Below are positions 73 to 5,551 of a stretch of DNA of 5,551 nucleotides, one piece after another (positions within the stretch are counted from its first letter, which is position 1; the number at the start of each line of letters is the position of its first letter). The notes under the pieces were generated by a model. That model worked only from the letters and a program-made list of their open reading frames with translations, had not been told where the DNA came from and searched no databases. Position numbers and translations under genes: made by a program. Origin of the DNA: a virus (Duplodnaviria; Heunggongvirae; Uroviricota; Caudoviricetes); the IMG/VR virus record IMGVR_UViG_2778261534_000003; one strand, written 5' to 3'.

Positions 73-366
73 TTGGGTGGCATTGACCTGACCAGTCCAA
101 CAGGAAAAATGATGATGCAAGTAATTTCAGCAGTCGCTGAATTTGAACGAGACCTTTTACTTGAACGCACTCATTCCGGGATAGTAAGAGCCCGCGGCGC
201 AGGGAAACGTTTTGGTCGACCACCTGTGTTAAATGAAGAACAGAAACAGGTGGTATTCGAACGAATTAAGTCAGGTGTAAGTATAAGTGCCATTGCCCGG
301 GAATTCAAAACCTCGCGGCAAACCATTTTAAGAGCCAAAGCAAAACTTCAGACACCTGACATATAA
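73..366 (+). pseudogene. 5'-truncated serine recombinase (resolvase/invertase family) fragment: C-terminal ~97 codons only (E-helix plus helix-turn-helix DNA-binding domain)
   Basis: Translation ([35 protein letters not shown]...[21 protein letters not shown]) matches the C-terminal half of Tn3/gamma-delta resolvase and Hin/Gin/Pin-type recombinases. The N-terminal catalytic domain with the active-site serine is absent. In-frame stops at 1-3, 22-24 and 49-51, and the other two forward frames are also closed upstream. The ORF would have to start at TTG (73). Confidence 0.6.
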
Positions 367-463: not shown

Positions 464-601
464 CTACGGCAGTGCTGGCCATTCAATATCCGGTACTACT
501 GATGTATTAACACGGTTCAGCAACACCCGATACTTTTTCCAGACTTCCAGCAACGAAGTTTCTTCCTCCGTTGCGATTTCCAGCTCAACAACAGTCTGAA
601 C
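464..601 (-). pseudogene. tfa: 3' remnant of a lambda-type tail fibre assembly gene (Tfa C-terminal ~45 codons), in the same frame as stf and immediately after its stop
   Basis: Minus-strand translation after the stf TGA (638-640) reads [57 protein letters not shown], stop at 464-466. [31 protein letters not shown] is the conserved C-terminus of lambda Tfa as I recall it. No start codon or N-terminal Tfa region is present. Confidence 0.65.
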
Positions 602-637
602 GTACCAGGAACAGCCTCCTTCAGGGCTTGAAGGATA

Positions 638-1075
638 TCAATGTTCGCTTCCTGTTAACTGCCCGACAAGTGCAACCAGTTCGCTTACCTGATTTTCCAG
701 AGTGCTGATCCGGGTGCCTGCTGTTGCCAGATTTTTACGTAGCGTTATGTTTTCCTCTTCCAGCGCGGTAACGCGACCATCTGTTTCACGGGCGACCTGA
801 ACAAGTAACCCCGTCACGGCGGCGTAGTCAACATTCAGATAACGTGTTTCTTCACGTAATTCATTGCCGTCAACCGTTGGTCCCTGCAACTCTTCACCGT
901 AATGAGTAAACGATCCTACAGCTTCTGGTATCGCCTCCATTACTTCCTGTGCAATAACGCCAGCATAAGGCATCCCGTTTTCCCTGAGCGTGTAGGTGTA
1001 TCCGTTCATTTTACGGATTGCTTTCGTCGCGTCGCTGATAACGAGAATATCGTCTTTAAGGTCGCGGTCTGATGA
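638..1075 (-). other. Stf C-terminal intramolecular chaperone / autoproteolytic domain (peptidase S74-like, 'chaperone of endosialidase'), residues ~1058-1202
   Basis: SSDRDLKDDI has the Ser-x4-Lys dyad spacing of S74 chaperones. Hallmark blocks GVIAQEVMEAIPEAV and YLNVDYAAVTGLLVQVARE are followed by a coiled-coil-like tail, and the domain ends at the protein C-terminus as in endosialidase and T5 L-shaped fibre proteins. Confidence 0.7.
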
Positions 1076-4000
1076 CTGATTCAGCGTTGTGCAATTAATA
1101 GCGCCATTTACATCAAACAACTGGCCTGCTGACGTTTTTTGCGCATAAAACAGATACGCAGCAGACGTTCCAACCTCAAAAACGTTTTGTCGATCACTTG
1201 ATCCCCATACTTTTGCGGCAAATGATAGTTCTGTATTACCTAAGTTCTGTAAAACAAAACGATTGCCAGTCCCTGTTTGTTTTGTAAGAGTTAAATCAAC
1301 AGTTGAGTTAACCTCATCCTTGTTGATAGTGAGCGCCTGCGCTTTAGCCCCGTTAACAGCACCTGTTTTGAGTTGAACCGCGCCGTCATTACCATTTAAC
1401 AGTATCTCAGCTCCGCTAAAGAAATTTTTTAGCGACAGCATCTTACTTACGCCGACTGATGAACCCAACGCCCACGCGAGAGAATTACCGGTGCTATCAA
1501 ACCCACGTACAAAGCAATCCATTTTGCTATAGTCTGACGTGCTTCCAAGGACATCAATCCGCCCTCCGCCAGATTTTACCGGGTTAGATGTGGTTAATGA
1601 CCTGACAGCAAGATCGGTAGATGAATTGAGATCGTCTACTGTTAATAGTCGTTTCCATCCCTTATCAACCCCAGCCTCAAAGCTTCTTGCCCAAAATTTG
1701 GAGTTGCGACCGGCGAATTGTGTGACGTAATTACCGCTAAATTGAGCATGGAATCCGCCAACAACCATTGTTCCGTCAGGACCGCCTGCGCTCCCTGCTA
1801 TTGGCTTAAACTTATTTACATTCTCTGTATGTTGAGTGCTCCAGTTTTGCCCTGTGTGAACAACCAATCCCTGATAAGAACTGAAGGTACCATCAAGGTT
1901 AAAATTAAAGAACTTACTGTTCCCTGAATTATTTATGTCCCTGACAACAATTTCACCAGAAGCGTTAGCGGCCCTTAGTTCAGTTTGATCGACAACCGGA
2001 CCTCCTTCGGATTGTAATCTTTGAGAAACAAATGTTCTGTTTGAAGCGTCCGTACCGTACGCGGTGAAAGATTGTGTTGCTTTAATCTGACCATTGTTTA
2101 CAAATATAGGAATAGTGACGGTAAAATTTTTGTCAAAACTCAGGCCATTTGTTAATGCAATCCTTTCTGACACCCCTTGTCTGAACGGAAGGTTGCTGTA
2201 GAAGCCATGTTCACCGCCAGTGAAGTCAAGAACATTTTTAACAAAGTTCTTGTCGTTATCCTCCGTTGACGTTGATACACCAAACTTATATCTAACCCCG
2301 TTGTCACCAATTACGTAGTCTTCTGTTGGAACCTTAACTTTTGCCTTGTAGCCAGTTTGCACAACGACAGGAAAAGCGCTTTTATGGATGTAGAAAGCTA
2401 CATGCTGCGCATAATCTCTTTGCGACGCTTTAATGCAAAGTATCCCGAGTTCATTTTTTTCATAGCAAACAAATGACCCGTAAGCCACATCGCGAACGTC
2501 ACTCCAGCCACCACATCGAATGAACCCAAAAAATGAGTTACTATTAAGCGGATTTGATGCCGGACCTCCTGCTGTTTTTATTTCAACAGGACATAACATG
2601 GCACCGCTCCCATTCATTGCGGATGTGTCTATTATGACAGGGTAGTATTTGCCATCCACTGCACCACCAGGGGCATTAAGGGTCATTGCTTTTGTTAATC
2701 CACCCTCAGGGATTTGCAAATTAGTTTTGGCGTCATCAAGGCTATTTGCGCCAGTGCCACCATGAGAAACATCAAGTGGTATCCATTTTTTTTGTGTGTC
2801 GCTGTAACACCCCCATGTTGATCCGGTTAACCCCAGGCGCATGGATTTATCATGGTTATATAACCATGTTTCGCTATTCCATTGGTCAAGACGGTCCACT
2901 TCATTTTTGCGAGCGTGGCGTGTCCATTGCGGGCCTGTTGTCGGACTCCAGCGATAGGTATAAAGCGAGCGAGTAGTCCATCCCTGAAATACACCTGTAT
3001 ACGCTGGAGTTCCATCTACCTGACTAATAAACCCCGTAAGACTGCTTTCACCGGATGCAATAGACGGGAAACCTGTTGCATCAGCCATGATGCGCATAAA
3101 GCCAATATAACCTGATGGATTTCCTGAGATGTCAGAGCAACCACGCGGTGATGATCCCAAACCGATGTTAGTACCAACAATACCCTGGGCCTGGTTGCGA
3201 TAATTAAGTGCGTCCGCCGCAGATTTCGCCGCGTTTGTTTCACTGGATTTAGCATTAGTTTCGCTGGCTTTAGCGTTGGTTTCGCTGCTCTTTGCTGCTG
3301 CCTCGCTATTTTTCGCGTTGGTTTCTGATTTTTTGGCTGCTGTCGCGGAGTTTGCCGATGCAGTTTGTGAGTCTGCTGCCGCCTGTGCGCTGTTATCCGC
3401 ATTCGTCTCAGACGTTTTTGCGGCCTTCGCGGAATTTCCTGCCGCCGTTGCCGAGGAAGCGGCACTGCTGGCGCTCGAGGCAGCGCTCGTTTCTGATGAT
3501 TTTGCCGCCTCTTTTGAAGCCGACGCATCCCGGGCTGAGGTGGCAGCTTCTGACGCTTTCGTGGTCGCGGTGGATGCAGAAGTGGCTGCTGATTGTTGTG
3601 ATGCTGCAGCATTCGTTTCTGACGTTTTCGCCGCACCGGCACTGGTGGCTGCCGCGCTTTTTGAGGACTCTGCTGCGGCAGCACTTTTTAATGCTTCAGT
3701 GGCCTTTGTTGATGCCGTTCCTGCGCTGGAAGACGCTGACTGAGCCGACGACGCGGCCTGTCCGGCTGACGTGCTGGCTGCGCGTGCTGAGCCTGCAGCA
3801 TCAGTCGCATGGGTTGCCGCCTCACGGGCTGATGTGCTGGCATCGCCGGCTGACTTCTTCGCGGCTGCCGTGTCCTGTGCCACTGCGGACGCGTTACGCG
3901 CCACCTCTTCCACCATCAGTTCAAAACGGCGCAGTGCCTCCGGACGGGCATCATCCTCCGTCATGGCACCGAGAAAATCATTCAGCGTACCCGGTTGAGA

Positions 4001-4240
4001 ATCTTCATACACGGTGATGGTCCCGGCATGTGACGGCGGGAATCCCTCCACCAACAGAATAACGCTGTACTGGCCGTGCTCAACGTCCATGCTGTAACGC
4101 CCTGCTTCATCCGGATTTTCAGATGCCACCGTGTTCACCACCACCGTGGTGCTGTTACGTTTTGCTTTCAGCTGGATTGTGCAGTTCTGTACCGGTTTAC
4201 CTGCACCGTCTTTCAGTACACCTGAAATCTTTACTGCCAT
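638..4240 (-). CDS. stf: Side tail fibre protein (lambda Stf family N-terminus, Ala/Ser/Thr-rich shaft, divergent distal domain, C-terminal intramolecular chaperone)
   Basis: 1200-codon ORF. The N-terminus MAVKISGVLKDGAGKPVQNCTIQLKAKRNSTTVVVN... closely matches lambda Stf. ATG at 4240-4238 gives the lambda-like MAVKISG start; the ORF track's start at 4246 is a GTG two codons upstream. Possible Shine-Dalgarno GGGGTG just upstream. Contains a PLDVSHGGTGANSLDDAKTNL motif typical of phage fibre proteins. C-terminal 145 residues are an S74-type chaperone domain. Confidence 0.9.
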   Translation of the reverse strand: MAVKISGVLKDGAGKPVQNCTIQLKAKRNSTTVVVNTVASENPDEAGRYSMDVEHGQYSVILLVEGFPPSHAGTITVYEDSQPGTLNDFLGAMTEDDARPEALRRFELMVEEVARNASAVAQDTAAAKKSAGDASTSAREAATHATDAAGSARAASTSAGQAASSAQSASSSAGTASTKATEALKSAAAAESSKSAAATSAGAAKTSETNAAASQQSAATSASTATTKASEAATSARDASASKEAAKSSETSAASSASSAASSATAAGNSAKAAKTSETNADNSAQAAADSQTASANSATAAKKSETNAKNSEAAAKSSETNAKASETNAKSSETNAAKSAADALNYRNQAQGIVGTNIGLGSSPRGCSDISGNPSGYIGFMRIMADATGFPSIASGESSLTGFISQVDGTPAYTGVFQGWTTRSLYTYRWSPTTGPQWTRHARKNEVDRLDQWNSETWLYNHDKSMRLGLTGSTWGCYSDTQKKWIPLDVSHGGTGANSLDDAKTNLQIPEGGLTKAMTLNAPGGAVDGKYYPVIIDTSAMNGSGAMLCPVEIKTAGGPASNPLNSNSFFGFIRCGGWSDVRDVAYGSFVCYEKNELGILCIKASQRDYAQHVAFYIHKSAFPVVVQTGYKAKVKVPTEDYVIGDNGVRYKFGVSTSTEDNDKNFVKNVLDFTGGEHGFYSNLPFRQGVSERIALTNGLSFDKNFTVTIPIFVNNGQIKATQSFTAYGTDASNRTFVSQRLQSEGGPVVDQTELRAANASGEIVVRDINNSGNSKFFNFNLDGTFSSYQGLVVHTGQNWSTQHTENVNKFKPIAGSAGGPDGTMVVGGFHAQFSGNYVTQFAGRNSKFWARSFEAGVDKGWKRLLTVDDLNSSTDLAVRSLTTSNPVKSGGGRIDVLGSTSDYSKMDCFVRGFDSTGNSLAWALGSSVGVSKMLSLKNFFSGAEILLNGNDGAVQLKTGAVNGAKAQALTINKDEVNSTVDLTLTKQTGTGNRFVLQNLGNTELSFAAKVWGSSDRQNVFEVGTSAAYLFYAQKTSAGQLFDVNGAINCTTLNQSSDRDLKDDILVISDATKAIRKMNGYTYTLRENGMPYAGVIAQEVMEAIPEAVGSFTHYGEELQGPTVDGNELREETRYLNVDYAAVTGLLVQVARETDGRVTALEEENITLRKNLATAGTRISTLENQVSELVALVGQLTGSEH
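3212..3904 (-). repeat. Low-complexity Ala/Ser/Thr-rich coding repeat region of the Stf shaft (residues ~115-345), including degenerate tandem ~21-nt units encoding K(S/T)SETNA heptads (clearest at 3224-3340)
   Basis: Protein shows AAKTSETNA, AAKKSETNAKNSEAAAKSSETNAKASETNAKSSETNAAKSA. DNA shows reiterated tttagcgttggtttcgctg-like units at 3241-3330. The region is GC-rich and open in several frames. Confidence 0.6.
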
Positions 4241-4249
4241 ATTCACCCC

Positions 4250-4278
4250 ACAAAAAAGCCCGCCTGAACCAGCGGGCT
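4250..4278 (-). terminator. Intrinsic (rho-independent) terminator downstream of lom: 7-bp GC-rich stem (4257-4263 / 4272-4278), 8-nt loop, then a run of six T on the minus strand
   Basis: agcccgc / gcgggct are exact reverse complements. On the minus strand the hairpin is followed by TTTTTTGTG (complement of 4249-4257). It lies about 27 nt after the lom stop and about 10 nt before the stf ATG. Confidence 0.65.
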
Positions 4279-4304
4279 GTCATAACACTGTGTTACCTGG
4301 CTAA

Positions 4305-4904
4305 TCAGAACTTATAACCAACACCCACGATGAACCCGTCAGTGCGCCAGTCGCCACTGCCGGAGCCTTCATAAGCGACATCAATGGCCACCGATTCGGT
4401 CGGGTTAAACTGCACGCCAGCTCCCCACGCCAGAGACGTGTTGCTGTGGTGACCGTCATCACTTCCGGTCAGCACATCATGCGTTTTCCCCTTGTTGTCA
4501 GTTACGCGGAGATAATCCCCGGAGAAAGTCGACACACGGCTGTAAGCCACACCCGCCATCGCATACGCGCTGAACCATTCATTCACGCGCACAGACGGTC
4601 CCGCCATCACGCTGAACCAGCGGTTACGCACGGAATCCTCATGCCAGCGGGTATCGCTGTAATGCGTTTTTTGCTCATCTTCAGCGTTGGCATAACTGAA
4701 TGACGTAATCAGCCCCAGCGTGTCCGTAAACTCATAACGGTATTTCACGTTAATCCCGTTCAGATTATCGCTGCCGGGAGCGTTCGTACGGGCATGAAGA
4801 TACCCTGCGCTCAGTGTGGCCTGCTGCTCAGACGCCCATGCAGGCGCACCGGATACGGCCAGACAGATGGCTGCGGACAAAATGGCTGCATAAACTTTAC
4901 GCAT
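4305..4904 (-). CDS. lom: Lom outer membrane protein (Ail/Lom/OmpX family beta-barrel; lambda lysogenic-conversion 'moron' gene)
   Basis: 199-aa product MRKVYAAILSAAICLAVSGAPAWASE...GINVKYRYEFTDTLG...WRTDGFIVGVGYKF is near-identical in pattern to lambda Lom as I recall it. Has a signal peptide with an AWA-S cleavage motif and a C-terminal aromatic residue typical of outer-membrane barrels. Shine-Dalgarno GAGAGG at 4910-4915, 5 nt upstream of ATG (4902-4904). Confidence 0.92.
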   Translation of the reverse strand: MRKVYAAILSAAICLAVSGAPAWASEQQATLSAGYLHARTNAPGSDNLNGINVKYRYEFTDTLGLITSFSYANAEDEQKTHYSDTRWHEDSVRNRWFSVMAGPSVRVNEWFSAYAMAGVAYSRVSTFSGDYLRVTDNKGKTHDVLTGSDDGHHSNTSLAWGAGVQFNPTESVAIDVAYEGSGSGDWRTDGFIVGVGYKF

Positions 4905-4925
4905 AATTACCTCTCGCTTTTCTGC

Positions 4926-4952
4926 AATAAAAAAGGCGCCATTTCTGGCGCC
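4926..4952 (-). terminator. Intrinsic terminator between J and lom: palindromic stem GGCGCC (4935-4940 / 4947-4952), 6-nt loop, then TTTTTTATT on the minus strand
   Basis: Read directly: ggcgcc atttct ggcgcc, with the A-run at 4929-4934 on the plus strand giving a U-tract on the minus transcript. Begins about 20 nt after the J stop. Confidence 0.65.
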
Positions 4953-4971
4953 CGTATTGGGGTTATAAAAT

Positions 4972-5551
4972 TCAGCTGATACTGATGCCTGCGGTGGCTT
5001 TCTTCATCACCACAACCAGCAAATCGCTGATACTTGCTGTGGGATACCAGTCATTTACCAGCCATGCTGACACCGAAAACTCCAGCGTCATGTGGCCGCG
5101 ACCAGCTGGCATATCAATAACACCACTGTAAATCAGCGTATTATCCAGCGCGGTATGGTTATAAATTTCAGCACCGTTTTTCCGTACTATCAGGCGGCAT
5201 GAGGAGTAGATATCAGTATGATCTTGCTCATGTTTAGCGCCACTGAATGCCACCGCCGGGATAACAATTTGCCGGTCAAACGGCTGATCGTCATAAACCC
5301 TGACGGTAATGGTCCCTGATGGCCACCGCTCCGGTGCACGGGAGTCCCGGGGGAAAGCCTTACCCACTGTTTTGACAATATCACCTTCAATCTGGTTGGC
5401 TGACAGTTTCCCCTTAATCTGACAGTTCTCATTAATCGTGACATTGTTGAGCGTCCCGGCGTTCGCATTCACACTGCCACTGATATCTGCATTTTTAGCG
5501 GTCAGCTTTCCGTCTGATGTCAGGGAAAATACCGGAGGACTGCCACCGCTG
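4972..5551 (-). CDS. J: Host specificity / central tail fibre protein J, C-terminal (receptor-binding) portion; 5' end lies beyond the window
   Basis: The frame stays open from the window edge to the stop at 4972-4974. My translation of 5473-5550 continues [27 protein letters not shown] into [16 protein letters not shown]..., matching the lambda J C-terminal region as I recall it. The listed 166-aa ORF merely starts at an internal GTG. The extreme C-terminus differs from lambda J. Confidence 0.85.

Follow-up and report, generated by a model that had tools for sequence, protein, structure and literature searches.

A Lambdoid Side Tail Fibre Gene Probably Assembled From Modules of Separate Histories, With a Distal Cassette of the Lateral Tail Fibre Type

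Introduction

The gene analyzed here is related to the side tail fibre gene (stf) of phage lambda and to the lateral tail fibre genes of virulent siphoviruses. That unrelated phages exchange tail fibre segments has been textbook knowledge since the early 1990s (Haggard-Ljungquist, 1992; Sandmeier, 1992, 1994; as cited in a 2014 survey of Escherichia coli phages, PMC3945230). In the BASEL papers, the lateral-fibre loci of Drexlerviridae, Queuovirinae and T5-like phages are variable downstream of a conserved 5′ end; these fibres are described as likely O-antigen binders, and fibre parts as often horizontally transferred (PMC8594841, PMC11990801). We analyzed an stf gene in a 5,551-nucleotide (nt) stretch of DNA from a Caudoviricetes virus (IMG/VR record IMGVR_UViG_2778261534_000003), referred to as the window and numbered from its first letter. 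This window represents the tail end of a lambdoid E. coli prophage of the Qin type, with the C-terminus of J, lom, stf, a tfa remnant and a pinQ gene cut by an IS10-type end.

Fibre cassette swapping is a known kind of event, and this gene itself is already present in RefSeq and in phage mEp460, with its architecture named in the NCBI annotation: the corresponding coding sequence of a locus 99.96–100% identical to the window (WP_097431425.1) is called a [quoted passage not shown] We consider it very probable (about 0.85) that stf is a lambdoid side tail fibre gene assembled from modules of separate histories, with a distal S74 cassette of the lateral-tail-fibre type. In the proposed arrangement, the first ~125 residues would form a lambda-type domain that anchors the fibre to the tail tip, followed by a heptad shaft; from about residue 330–370, a lateral-tail-fibre cassette such as that of T5-like and Queuovirinae virulent siphoviruses would have been joined by recombination within the last SETNAK repeats of the shaft.

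Residues are numbered from the GTG at 4246, the start given by the open reading frame (ORF) lister (1202 amino acids, aa); two are subtracted for numbering from the ATG at 4240, the start in RefSeq and in the initial annotation of this DNA. The modules are as follows:

638..4240, minus strand: stf, side tail fibre gene; 1200 aa from the ATG, 1202 aa from the GTG at 4246
3839..4240, minus strand: lambda-type attachment domain, Pfam phage_tail_N (PF08400), aa 3–136; E = 1.6e-71, full profile
3227..3871, minus strand: Ala/Ser/Thr-rich heptad-repeat shaft with SETNA(K) motifs, aa ~126–340
3133..3268, minus strand: left recombination joint zone, from blastn ends, DNA and protein alignments and cumulative sum (CUSUM) analysis
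1388..3166, minus strand: distal module common to virulent siphovirus lateral tail fibres; GC content at third codon positions (GC3) 0.378, Nonagvirus-like codon usage
1073..1387, minus strand: fibre tip before the cleavage site, aa ~954–1058; most AT-rich stretch
641..1072, minus strand: C-terminal Peptidase_S74 intramolecular chaperone domain (Pfam PF13884), aa 1059–1202
464..637, minus strand: tfa remnant, last ~44–57 codons

Results and Discussion

Homology Breakpoints in stf

Breakpoints were located by local blastn of the window against fetched loci, which gave the following matches:

Lambda: window 3399–4432, 86% identity
Ayreon: window 3267–5130, 92% identity
640R1: window 3267–5551, 95% identity
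FritzHoffmann lateral tail fibre (virulent Nonagvirus, Queuovirinae): window 751–3133, 83% identity
slur09 fibre (Tequintavirus, T5-like): window 758–2765 and 2894–3166, 74% and 82% identity

Ayreon and 640R1, lambdoid phages with other distal alleles, remain 92–95% identical to the window from J and lom to about nt 3268 and then diverge. Lambdoid identity ends there within the last SETNAK repeats, and FritzHoffmann agrees with the repeat unit that follows in 19 of 21 positions; lateral-fibre similarity starts at nt 3166/3133 and is unbroken from "IGLGSSPRGCSDISGNPSGY" onward. The left joint was placed at aa 326–371 because lambdoid similarity ends and lateral-fibre similarity starts there. 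On the right side, similarity to lambda tfa returns at nt 600, directly past the stop codon, which puts the right joint at ~601–637, so that the cassette spans from nt 601/637 to about 3268. Across the left joint, identity to one and the same partner either rises steeply (34% to 78% aa) or collapses (95% to under 40%); for FritzHoffmann, it is 34.5% aa in the N-terminal domain and 78% over aa 320–1175. The chimeric origin and a joint near residue ~350, both proposed in the initial annotation from base composition, are thus supported by independent homology breakpoints.

Separate searches of the two parts pointed to different phage groups below the very best matches. The search with aa 1–125 retrieved 317 phage records, 235 of them at 80% identity or more; among the matches listed, the closest were lambdoid or Stx-converting phages (>88% aa), and the next tier was Queuovirinae at 33–37%. 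With aa 361–1058, the tblastn order was mEp460 (98.6%), FritzHoffmann (83%), slur09 (69%), T5-like phages (37–46%) and Queuovirinae (36–42%), and the T5-like and Queuovirinae matches at 36–46% aa cover 87–100% of this segment. Besides mEp460, mEp044 was the sole lambdoid-named (mEp) phage in the best 40 records for aa 361–1058, with a partial match (57% over 73%). The top matches of both parts, mEp460 and ~80–100 E. coli prophages, were collinear because they all share this chimera. The whole gene occurs in ~80–100 E. coli genomes; PHROG 6578 covers each of the four query segments, beginning at N-terminal residue 35 and reaching nearly to the C-terminus.

Base Composition and Codon Usage

The shift in base composition that the initial annotation had called sharp is real but gradual: GC content is 0.575 in aa 1–330 (nt 3257–4246) and 0.454 in the rest of stf, and raw GC falls over ~800 nt with a raw change point at nt 2908. 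The description of a GC-rich proximal part and an AT-richer distal part was borne out. In 300-nt windows, GC reaches its maximum of 0.637 at 3701–4000 and its minimum of 0.40 at 1901–2200, and it averages 0.445 in aa 361–1058 (nt 1073–3166) and 0.498 in the S74 end (nt 641–1072, last 144 residues). AAA/TTT runs, also cited in support of the shift, are enriched at nt 1200–1320, the most AT-rich patch (90.9 per kb, GC 0.372); their general distal excess is modest (58.5 per kb vs. 47.5 per kb proximally), which makes them a weak discriminator.

The amino acid sequence accounts for the larger share of this shift. When synonymous codons were permuted among positions of the same amino acid, 0.071 of the proximal-minus-distal GC difference of 0.120 was retained, so that ~59% of it is amino acid composition. 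The synonymous remainder (~40%) was significant (z = 4.7, reached by 0 of 5000 shuffles), with a GC3 of 0.524 proximally vs. 0.393 distally. The CUSUM change point of the synonymous residual was found at aa 354, i.e., nt 3184 (0 of 2000 shuffles), inside both the breakpoint zone of nt 3133–3268 and the joint interval of aa 326–371. Codon usage was also heterogeneous between the parts (chi2 94.6 vs. a null of 40.9 ± 8.3; 0 of 1000 shuffles), and the GC and codon-usage comparison that had been suggested along the gene therefore revealed a significant discontinuity. The raw GC change point at nt 2908 misses the joint because amino acid content dominates raw GC; as a joint locator it was replaced by the synonymous-residual analysis.

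By synonymous codon log-likelihood, aa 1–330 are lambdoid-like (+0.21 bits/codon), aa 331–1202 are Nonagvirus-like (−0.20), and the S74 end is close to 0. The GC3 values compared were:

Window distal module: 0.378
FritzHoffmann homologous part: 0.365–0.366
Other FritzHoffmann genes: 0.26–0.42
slur09 homologous part: 0.335
Remainder of the slur09 fibre gene: 0.17–0.18
lom: 0.61
J: 0.55–0.59
Lambda orf-401: 0.53

At 0.576, the GC3 of stf aa 1–125 is like that of lom and J, and the codon usage of the cassette suggests a resemblance to a genome of ~43% GC and not to its lambdoid neighbours. In all likelihood the composition shift has two causes: the Ala/Ser/Thr codons of the shaft raise GC, and the cassette retains AT-richer codon usage. 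Raw GC is weaker evidence for a chimera than it had appeared, as the Ala/Ser/Thr shaft makes most of the visible shift.

Patchwork Structure of the Distal Part

No Pfam domain was found in aa 361–1058, and this segment is homologous to the lateral tail fibres of T5-like phages and Queuovirinae. The N-terminus proper to that fibre family and a virulent genome were not found in the window, which has a lambda-type N-terminus and derives from an E. coli chromosomal prophage. A sequence search of the PDB with the protein returned only a lambda N-terminal fragment and one S74 domain, with no T5 pb1 chain, and an NCBIfam search with the whole protein gave no match. The distal part is predicted to bind a glycan, probably O-antigen; for this fibre family, O-antigen or another surface glycan has been proposed as the first receptor (PMC8594841, PMC11990801).

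Identity to the virulent phages is uneven along the cassette. FritzHoffmann shares blocks at 1388–1957 (99%, with exact runs of 198, 115 and 96 nt) and 2618–2857 (97%), is ~75% identical over 2018–2677 and falls to 55–71% nt over the tip and S74 end; slur09 shares a 95% block at 1628–1837. Within the module at 1388–3166, exact identity runs of 198, 131 and 115 nt occur. The uneven block identities require several recombination events, some of them very recent. The tip is nearer to other lambdoid S74-type fibres (Ayreon, 82–98% nt over aa 961–1080) than to FritzHoffmann (~59–71%), and such fibres are also the nearest to the tip and S74 end taken together: Ayreon is 82–98% identical in nt over aa 961–1202 and PhiR70_1 89–96% over aa 1081–1202. 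The nt identity to mEp460 is 86–97% for aa 1–420 and 97–100% beyond. At nt 2987–3166 (aa 361–420), identity to both mEp460 and PhiR70_1 is 86% nt vs. 96–100% nearby; as the least conserved stretch relative to near-identical relatives, aa 361–420 hint at a further small exchanged patch.

Several observations weigh against the preferred reading. The distal part is a patchwork and not a single cassette, and the linker at nt ~3150–3240 is close to neither phage group, so that the sequences compared do not include the true partners. Moreover, the ~59% of the GC shift that lies in amino acid composition is explicable without a foreign origin, and a low GC3 is likewise seen in the distal regions of other lambdoid stf alleles (0.33–0.48), in lambda orf314 (0.48) and in tfa (0.46). 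A low GC3 may thus characterize distal fibre modules in general, in which case it would not mark one recent import. The earlier proposal that the distal part came from a different lineage holds insofar as the modules have separate histories.

Direction and Route of Transfer

The chimera is real, but codon usage and distribution point to opposite directions of transfer and do not single out a donor for each block: by codon usage, the module seems at home in a genome of ~43% GC and foreign among its lambdoid neighbours, whereas the distribution of the recent blocks suggests the reverse. It is possible, although we regard it as doubtful, that the recent transfer ran in reverse, with FritzHoffmann and slur09 taking the module from a pool of lambdoid-prophage S74 fibres and with low GC3 being common to distal fibre modules at large. 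Other Nonagvirus phages resemble the FritzHoffmann fibre gene only in its 5′ 555 nt (74–91%) and have nothing close to its distal 2.4 kb, which matches 535 E. coli genomes, always at prophage fibre annotations (best match, 90% identity across 74% of the gene). The distal segment 1073–3166, i.e., the FritzHoffmann-like module plus tip, is present to at least 80% in 106 E. coli genomes. Among T5-like phages, slur09 alone is close, the others being at 37–46% aa, and the GC3 of its module exceeds that of the rest of its own fibre gene (0.335 vs. 0.17–0.18); the low GC3 of other lambdoid distal parts likewise fits a reversed transfer. However, the codon usage of the module fits the Nonagvirus background and lies ~0.15–0.2 in GC3 away from the lambdoid neighbours, and relatives at 36–46% aa are widespread in T5-like phages and Queuovirinae but rare in lambdoids. 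The genome counts also come from skewed sampling, with 5426 E. coli genomes vs. a few dozen Queuovirinae.

As to the route, the SETNAK repeats are also found in the fibres of virulent phages, and a joint lying in repeats common to all partner types makes homologous or short-homology recombination likely. Relaxed homologous recombination of lambda with stf/tfa of Qin and Rac has been demonstrated experimentally (PMC3945230). Site-specific exchange of the cassette by a Pin-type invertase, as proposed for Mu, P1, e14 and p15B, is very improbable here. In its favour, pinQ is found downstream of stf at a distance of 271 nt, the genes for fibre, Tfa and invertase occur together in related phages, and invertase-driven exchange of stf segments has been proposed (Sandmeier, 1994, as cited in PMC3945230). 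Yet a gix/pix-like core (AAACCNNGGTTT, one mismatch allowed) was not found in the window, and the left joint lies inside the 21-nt shaft repeats of both partner types. Furthermore, mEp460 has the same chimera with no adjacent invertase, and its similarity to the window ends at nt 478 where the pin flank starts, which marks pin as a different segment. The invertase was rejected as the main route on the grounds of the missing core, the mEp460 chimera and the separate pin flank.

That there is no chimera at all, but one vertical gene running from an Ala/Ser/Thr shaft into an Asn/Lys/Gly-rich globular distal part, is scarcely credible: shuffling does reproduce 0.071 of the 0.120, and the raw and amino-acid-expected GC change points both fall at nt 2908, off the joint, but the synonymous residual shifts at nt 3184, the codon-usage heterogeneity was not matched by any shuffle, and identity to a single partner jumps at the joint.

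Within the preferred reading of stf as a mosaic of modules, we tentatively suggest, at somewhat less than even odds, that the stf gene of E. coli TUM1887, which carries the near-identical locus, is still trading fibre segments with virulent Nonagvirus and T5-like coliphages, the conserved SETNAK repeats and conserved collar motifs serving as recombination footholds. If so, cryptic prophages would supply virulent phages with host-range modules and might also receive such modules from them.

N-Terminal Domain and Shaft

The phage_tail_N domain typical of lambda-type Stf attachment is present, and aa 3–96 match a 94-residue "Tail fiber protein" chain in the PDB (9e7m/9mgh; E = 5e-51). The shaft that follows consists of Ala, Ser and Thr to 74–78%, and its second codon positions (GC2, 0.76–0.84) make the GC peak. 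Residue autocorrelation in the shaft is 0.45 at lags of 7, 14, 21 and 28 vs. ~0.17 elsewhere, SETNA motifs occur at aa 209–335, a 21-nt tandem repeat lies at 3237–3287, and repeat families are spaced by multiples of 21 nt. This heptad pattern of small residues suggests that the shaft may form a coiled-coil-like trimeric rod.

Long ORFs in other frames or on the opposite strand (222, 155, 241 and 75 aa) were observed at 3016–4017 within the GC-rich shaft. Base composition probably gives rise to these off-frame and antisense ORFs as artefacts; a similar antisense ORF, orf206b, is annotated within orf-401 in the lambda record.

S74 Domain and tfa Remnant

Peptidase_S74 is the intramolecular chaperone of endosialidase fibres (K1F) and T5-type (pb1) fibres. 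In stf, the PF13884 match at aa 1059–1110 scored 47.3 bits against a cut-off of 22, which places the protein in the S74 family. The motif SDRDLK (S1059-D-R-D-L-K1064, with the Ser codon at 1070–1072) fits the S-D-x-x-x-K pattern and aligns with "SSDRRIKKDI" in the S74 region of PDB 6f45. We take Ser1059 and Lys1064 to be the putative catalytic dyad of this family. As predicted from the sequence, the S74 domain would fold the trimer and then cleave itself off at Ser1059, and a fibre that is its own chaperone would make a separate Tfa unnecessary.

A separate Tfa chaperone gene downstream, as in lambda-type Stf, was not found, and the S74 domain stands in its place. The tfa stub shares 85% nt identity with the 3′ end of lambda tfa, is matched by PHROG tail-fibre-assembly families only through their C-terminal ends, and is annotated as a partial pseudogene in the 99.96–100% identical locus. 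Its decay is probably due to the S74 fibre having no need of Tfa. This stub is also present behind the S74-type stf genes of mEp460, Ayreon and PhiR70_1, which suggests a single ancestral replacement of distal stf together with most of tfa.

Locus and Neighbouring Genes

The remaining genes of the window are:

4972..5472, minus strand: C-terminal receptor-binding part of the tail tip protein J; Pfam Ig_GpJ_C, E = 1.9e-39, GC3 0.55
4305..4904, minus strand: lom; Pfam Ail_Lom, E = 8e-124, GC3 0.61; lambdoid composition reference
73–366, plus strand: C-terminal part of a Pin-type invertase (pinQ, 63–366), from the ORF list and Pfam

The position of stf directly after J and lom is that of a lambda-type Stf, and the order is the same in lambda, mEp460 and Ayreon. 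E. coli TUM1887 and NCTC9088 have a defective prophage of the Qin type, next to ydfK/pinQ, that matches the window at 99.96–100% identity from nt ~61–64 to 5551. Nucleotides 1–62 are not pinQ; they read as a terminal inverted repeat of the IS10/ISVsa5 type (IS4 family; "CTGATGAATCCCCTAATGATTTT..." on the reverse strand). Because the first ~60 bases are such an end, the invertase gene is taken to be cut after about codon 98 in the source of the window. In TUM1887, pinQ is intact in the otherwise 99.96–100% identical locus, and in E. coli strain MB50, an ISVsa5 transposase gene lies directly beside a pin gene. The invertible segment of the related phages Turner, 2H10 and Kati is absent from the window, as is a second fibre end.

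Terminator-like hairpins on the minus strand were found at 4257–4278 between lom and stf and at 4934–4953 between J and lom, at the sites of rho-independent terminators annotated in the mEp460 and Ayreon records. With such hairpins upstream, expression of stf would require read-through. Apart from its intact stf, the TUM1887 prophage is strongly decayed: fragments of the tape measure, of a tail protein and of J lie beside terL (10909–12827). TUM1887 has a second S74-type stf elsewhere (record 3207690–3210051), which is 85% identical to the FritzHoffmann fibre.

Significance

The locus is mildly notable for the 95–99% blocks common to a temperate or defective prophage and two groups of virulent phages. 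Large-scale studies made since the 2014 survey have described gene flow across phage lifestyles, and such temperate/virulent blocks are therefore unsurprising today. Among the 84 E. coli phage genomes that it covered, the survey itself saw no mosaic of a temperate with a virulent phage at the level taken as recent, above 90% identity (PMC3945230); here, by contrast, one shared block has 570 nt at 99% and another 240 nt at 97%. Our literature search returned nothing specific on the mEp460 fibre or on lambdoid S74 fibres, and these phage groups lie outside the coverage of a 2024 recombination paper.

The present case supplies a precisely mapped joint within heptad repeats of both partners. Since fibre cassettes set host range, joint positions are useful for fibre engineering, and they help to judge how readily therapeutic virulent phages swap receptor-binding parts with resident prophages.

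Comparison With Known Fibres

The fibre most similar to that of the window is mEp460 Stf (YP_007112094.1), which is collinear over 1202 residues at 98% aa identity and, like the window gene, neighbours lom and J and is followed by the tfa stub. The two loci differ downstream, where mEp460 has dinI and an integrase gene and the window has the pinQ gene cut by IS10. Ayreon, vB_EcoS-640R1 and PhiR70_1 share the N-terminus and shaft at 92–98% nt (60-residue windows over aa 1–300), and Ayreon and PhiR70_1 also have the S74 end (87–96% nt, aa 1081–1202) and the tfa stub, whereas the 640R1 match stops at about aa 1042 and nt 1134. The central distal module (aa 361–900) is under 40% identical in aa in Ayreon and 640R1 and is deleted or replaced in PhiR70_1.

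Among the virulent phages, the lateral fibre of FritzHoffmann/Bas20 (QXV79286.1) is 78–83% identical in aa to the distal part and 34.5% to the N-terminal domain, and that of slur09 (YP_009202114.1) is 69–70% identical to the distal part; both share blocks at 95–99% nt. The FritzHoffmann lateral fibre gene (3820–7002) is itself chimeric, with 2.4 kb for which the only close matches are E. coli prophage fibres, mEp460 and slur09. Virulent lateral fibres follow the same plan as the window fibre, with a phage_tail_N-like start, a SETNA-type shaft, a variable distal part and an S74 end, but they belong to virulent phages, whereas the fibre of the window belongs to a temperate or defective prophage.

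Lambda Stf, which is split into orf-401 and orf-314 in lambda PaPa and intact in Ur-lambda, shares with the window the position after J and lom and the N-terminal domain and shaft, where orf-401 is 86–87% identical to aa 3–286. The two fibres part beyond the shaft: lambda has the distal orf-314 and a need for Tfa, whereas the window has the lateral-fibre cassette with its S74 end and only the last ~127 nt of tfa.

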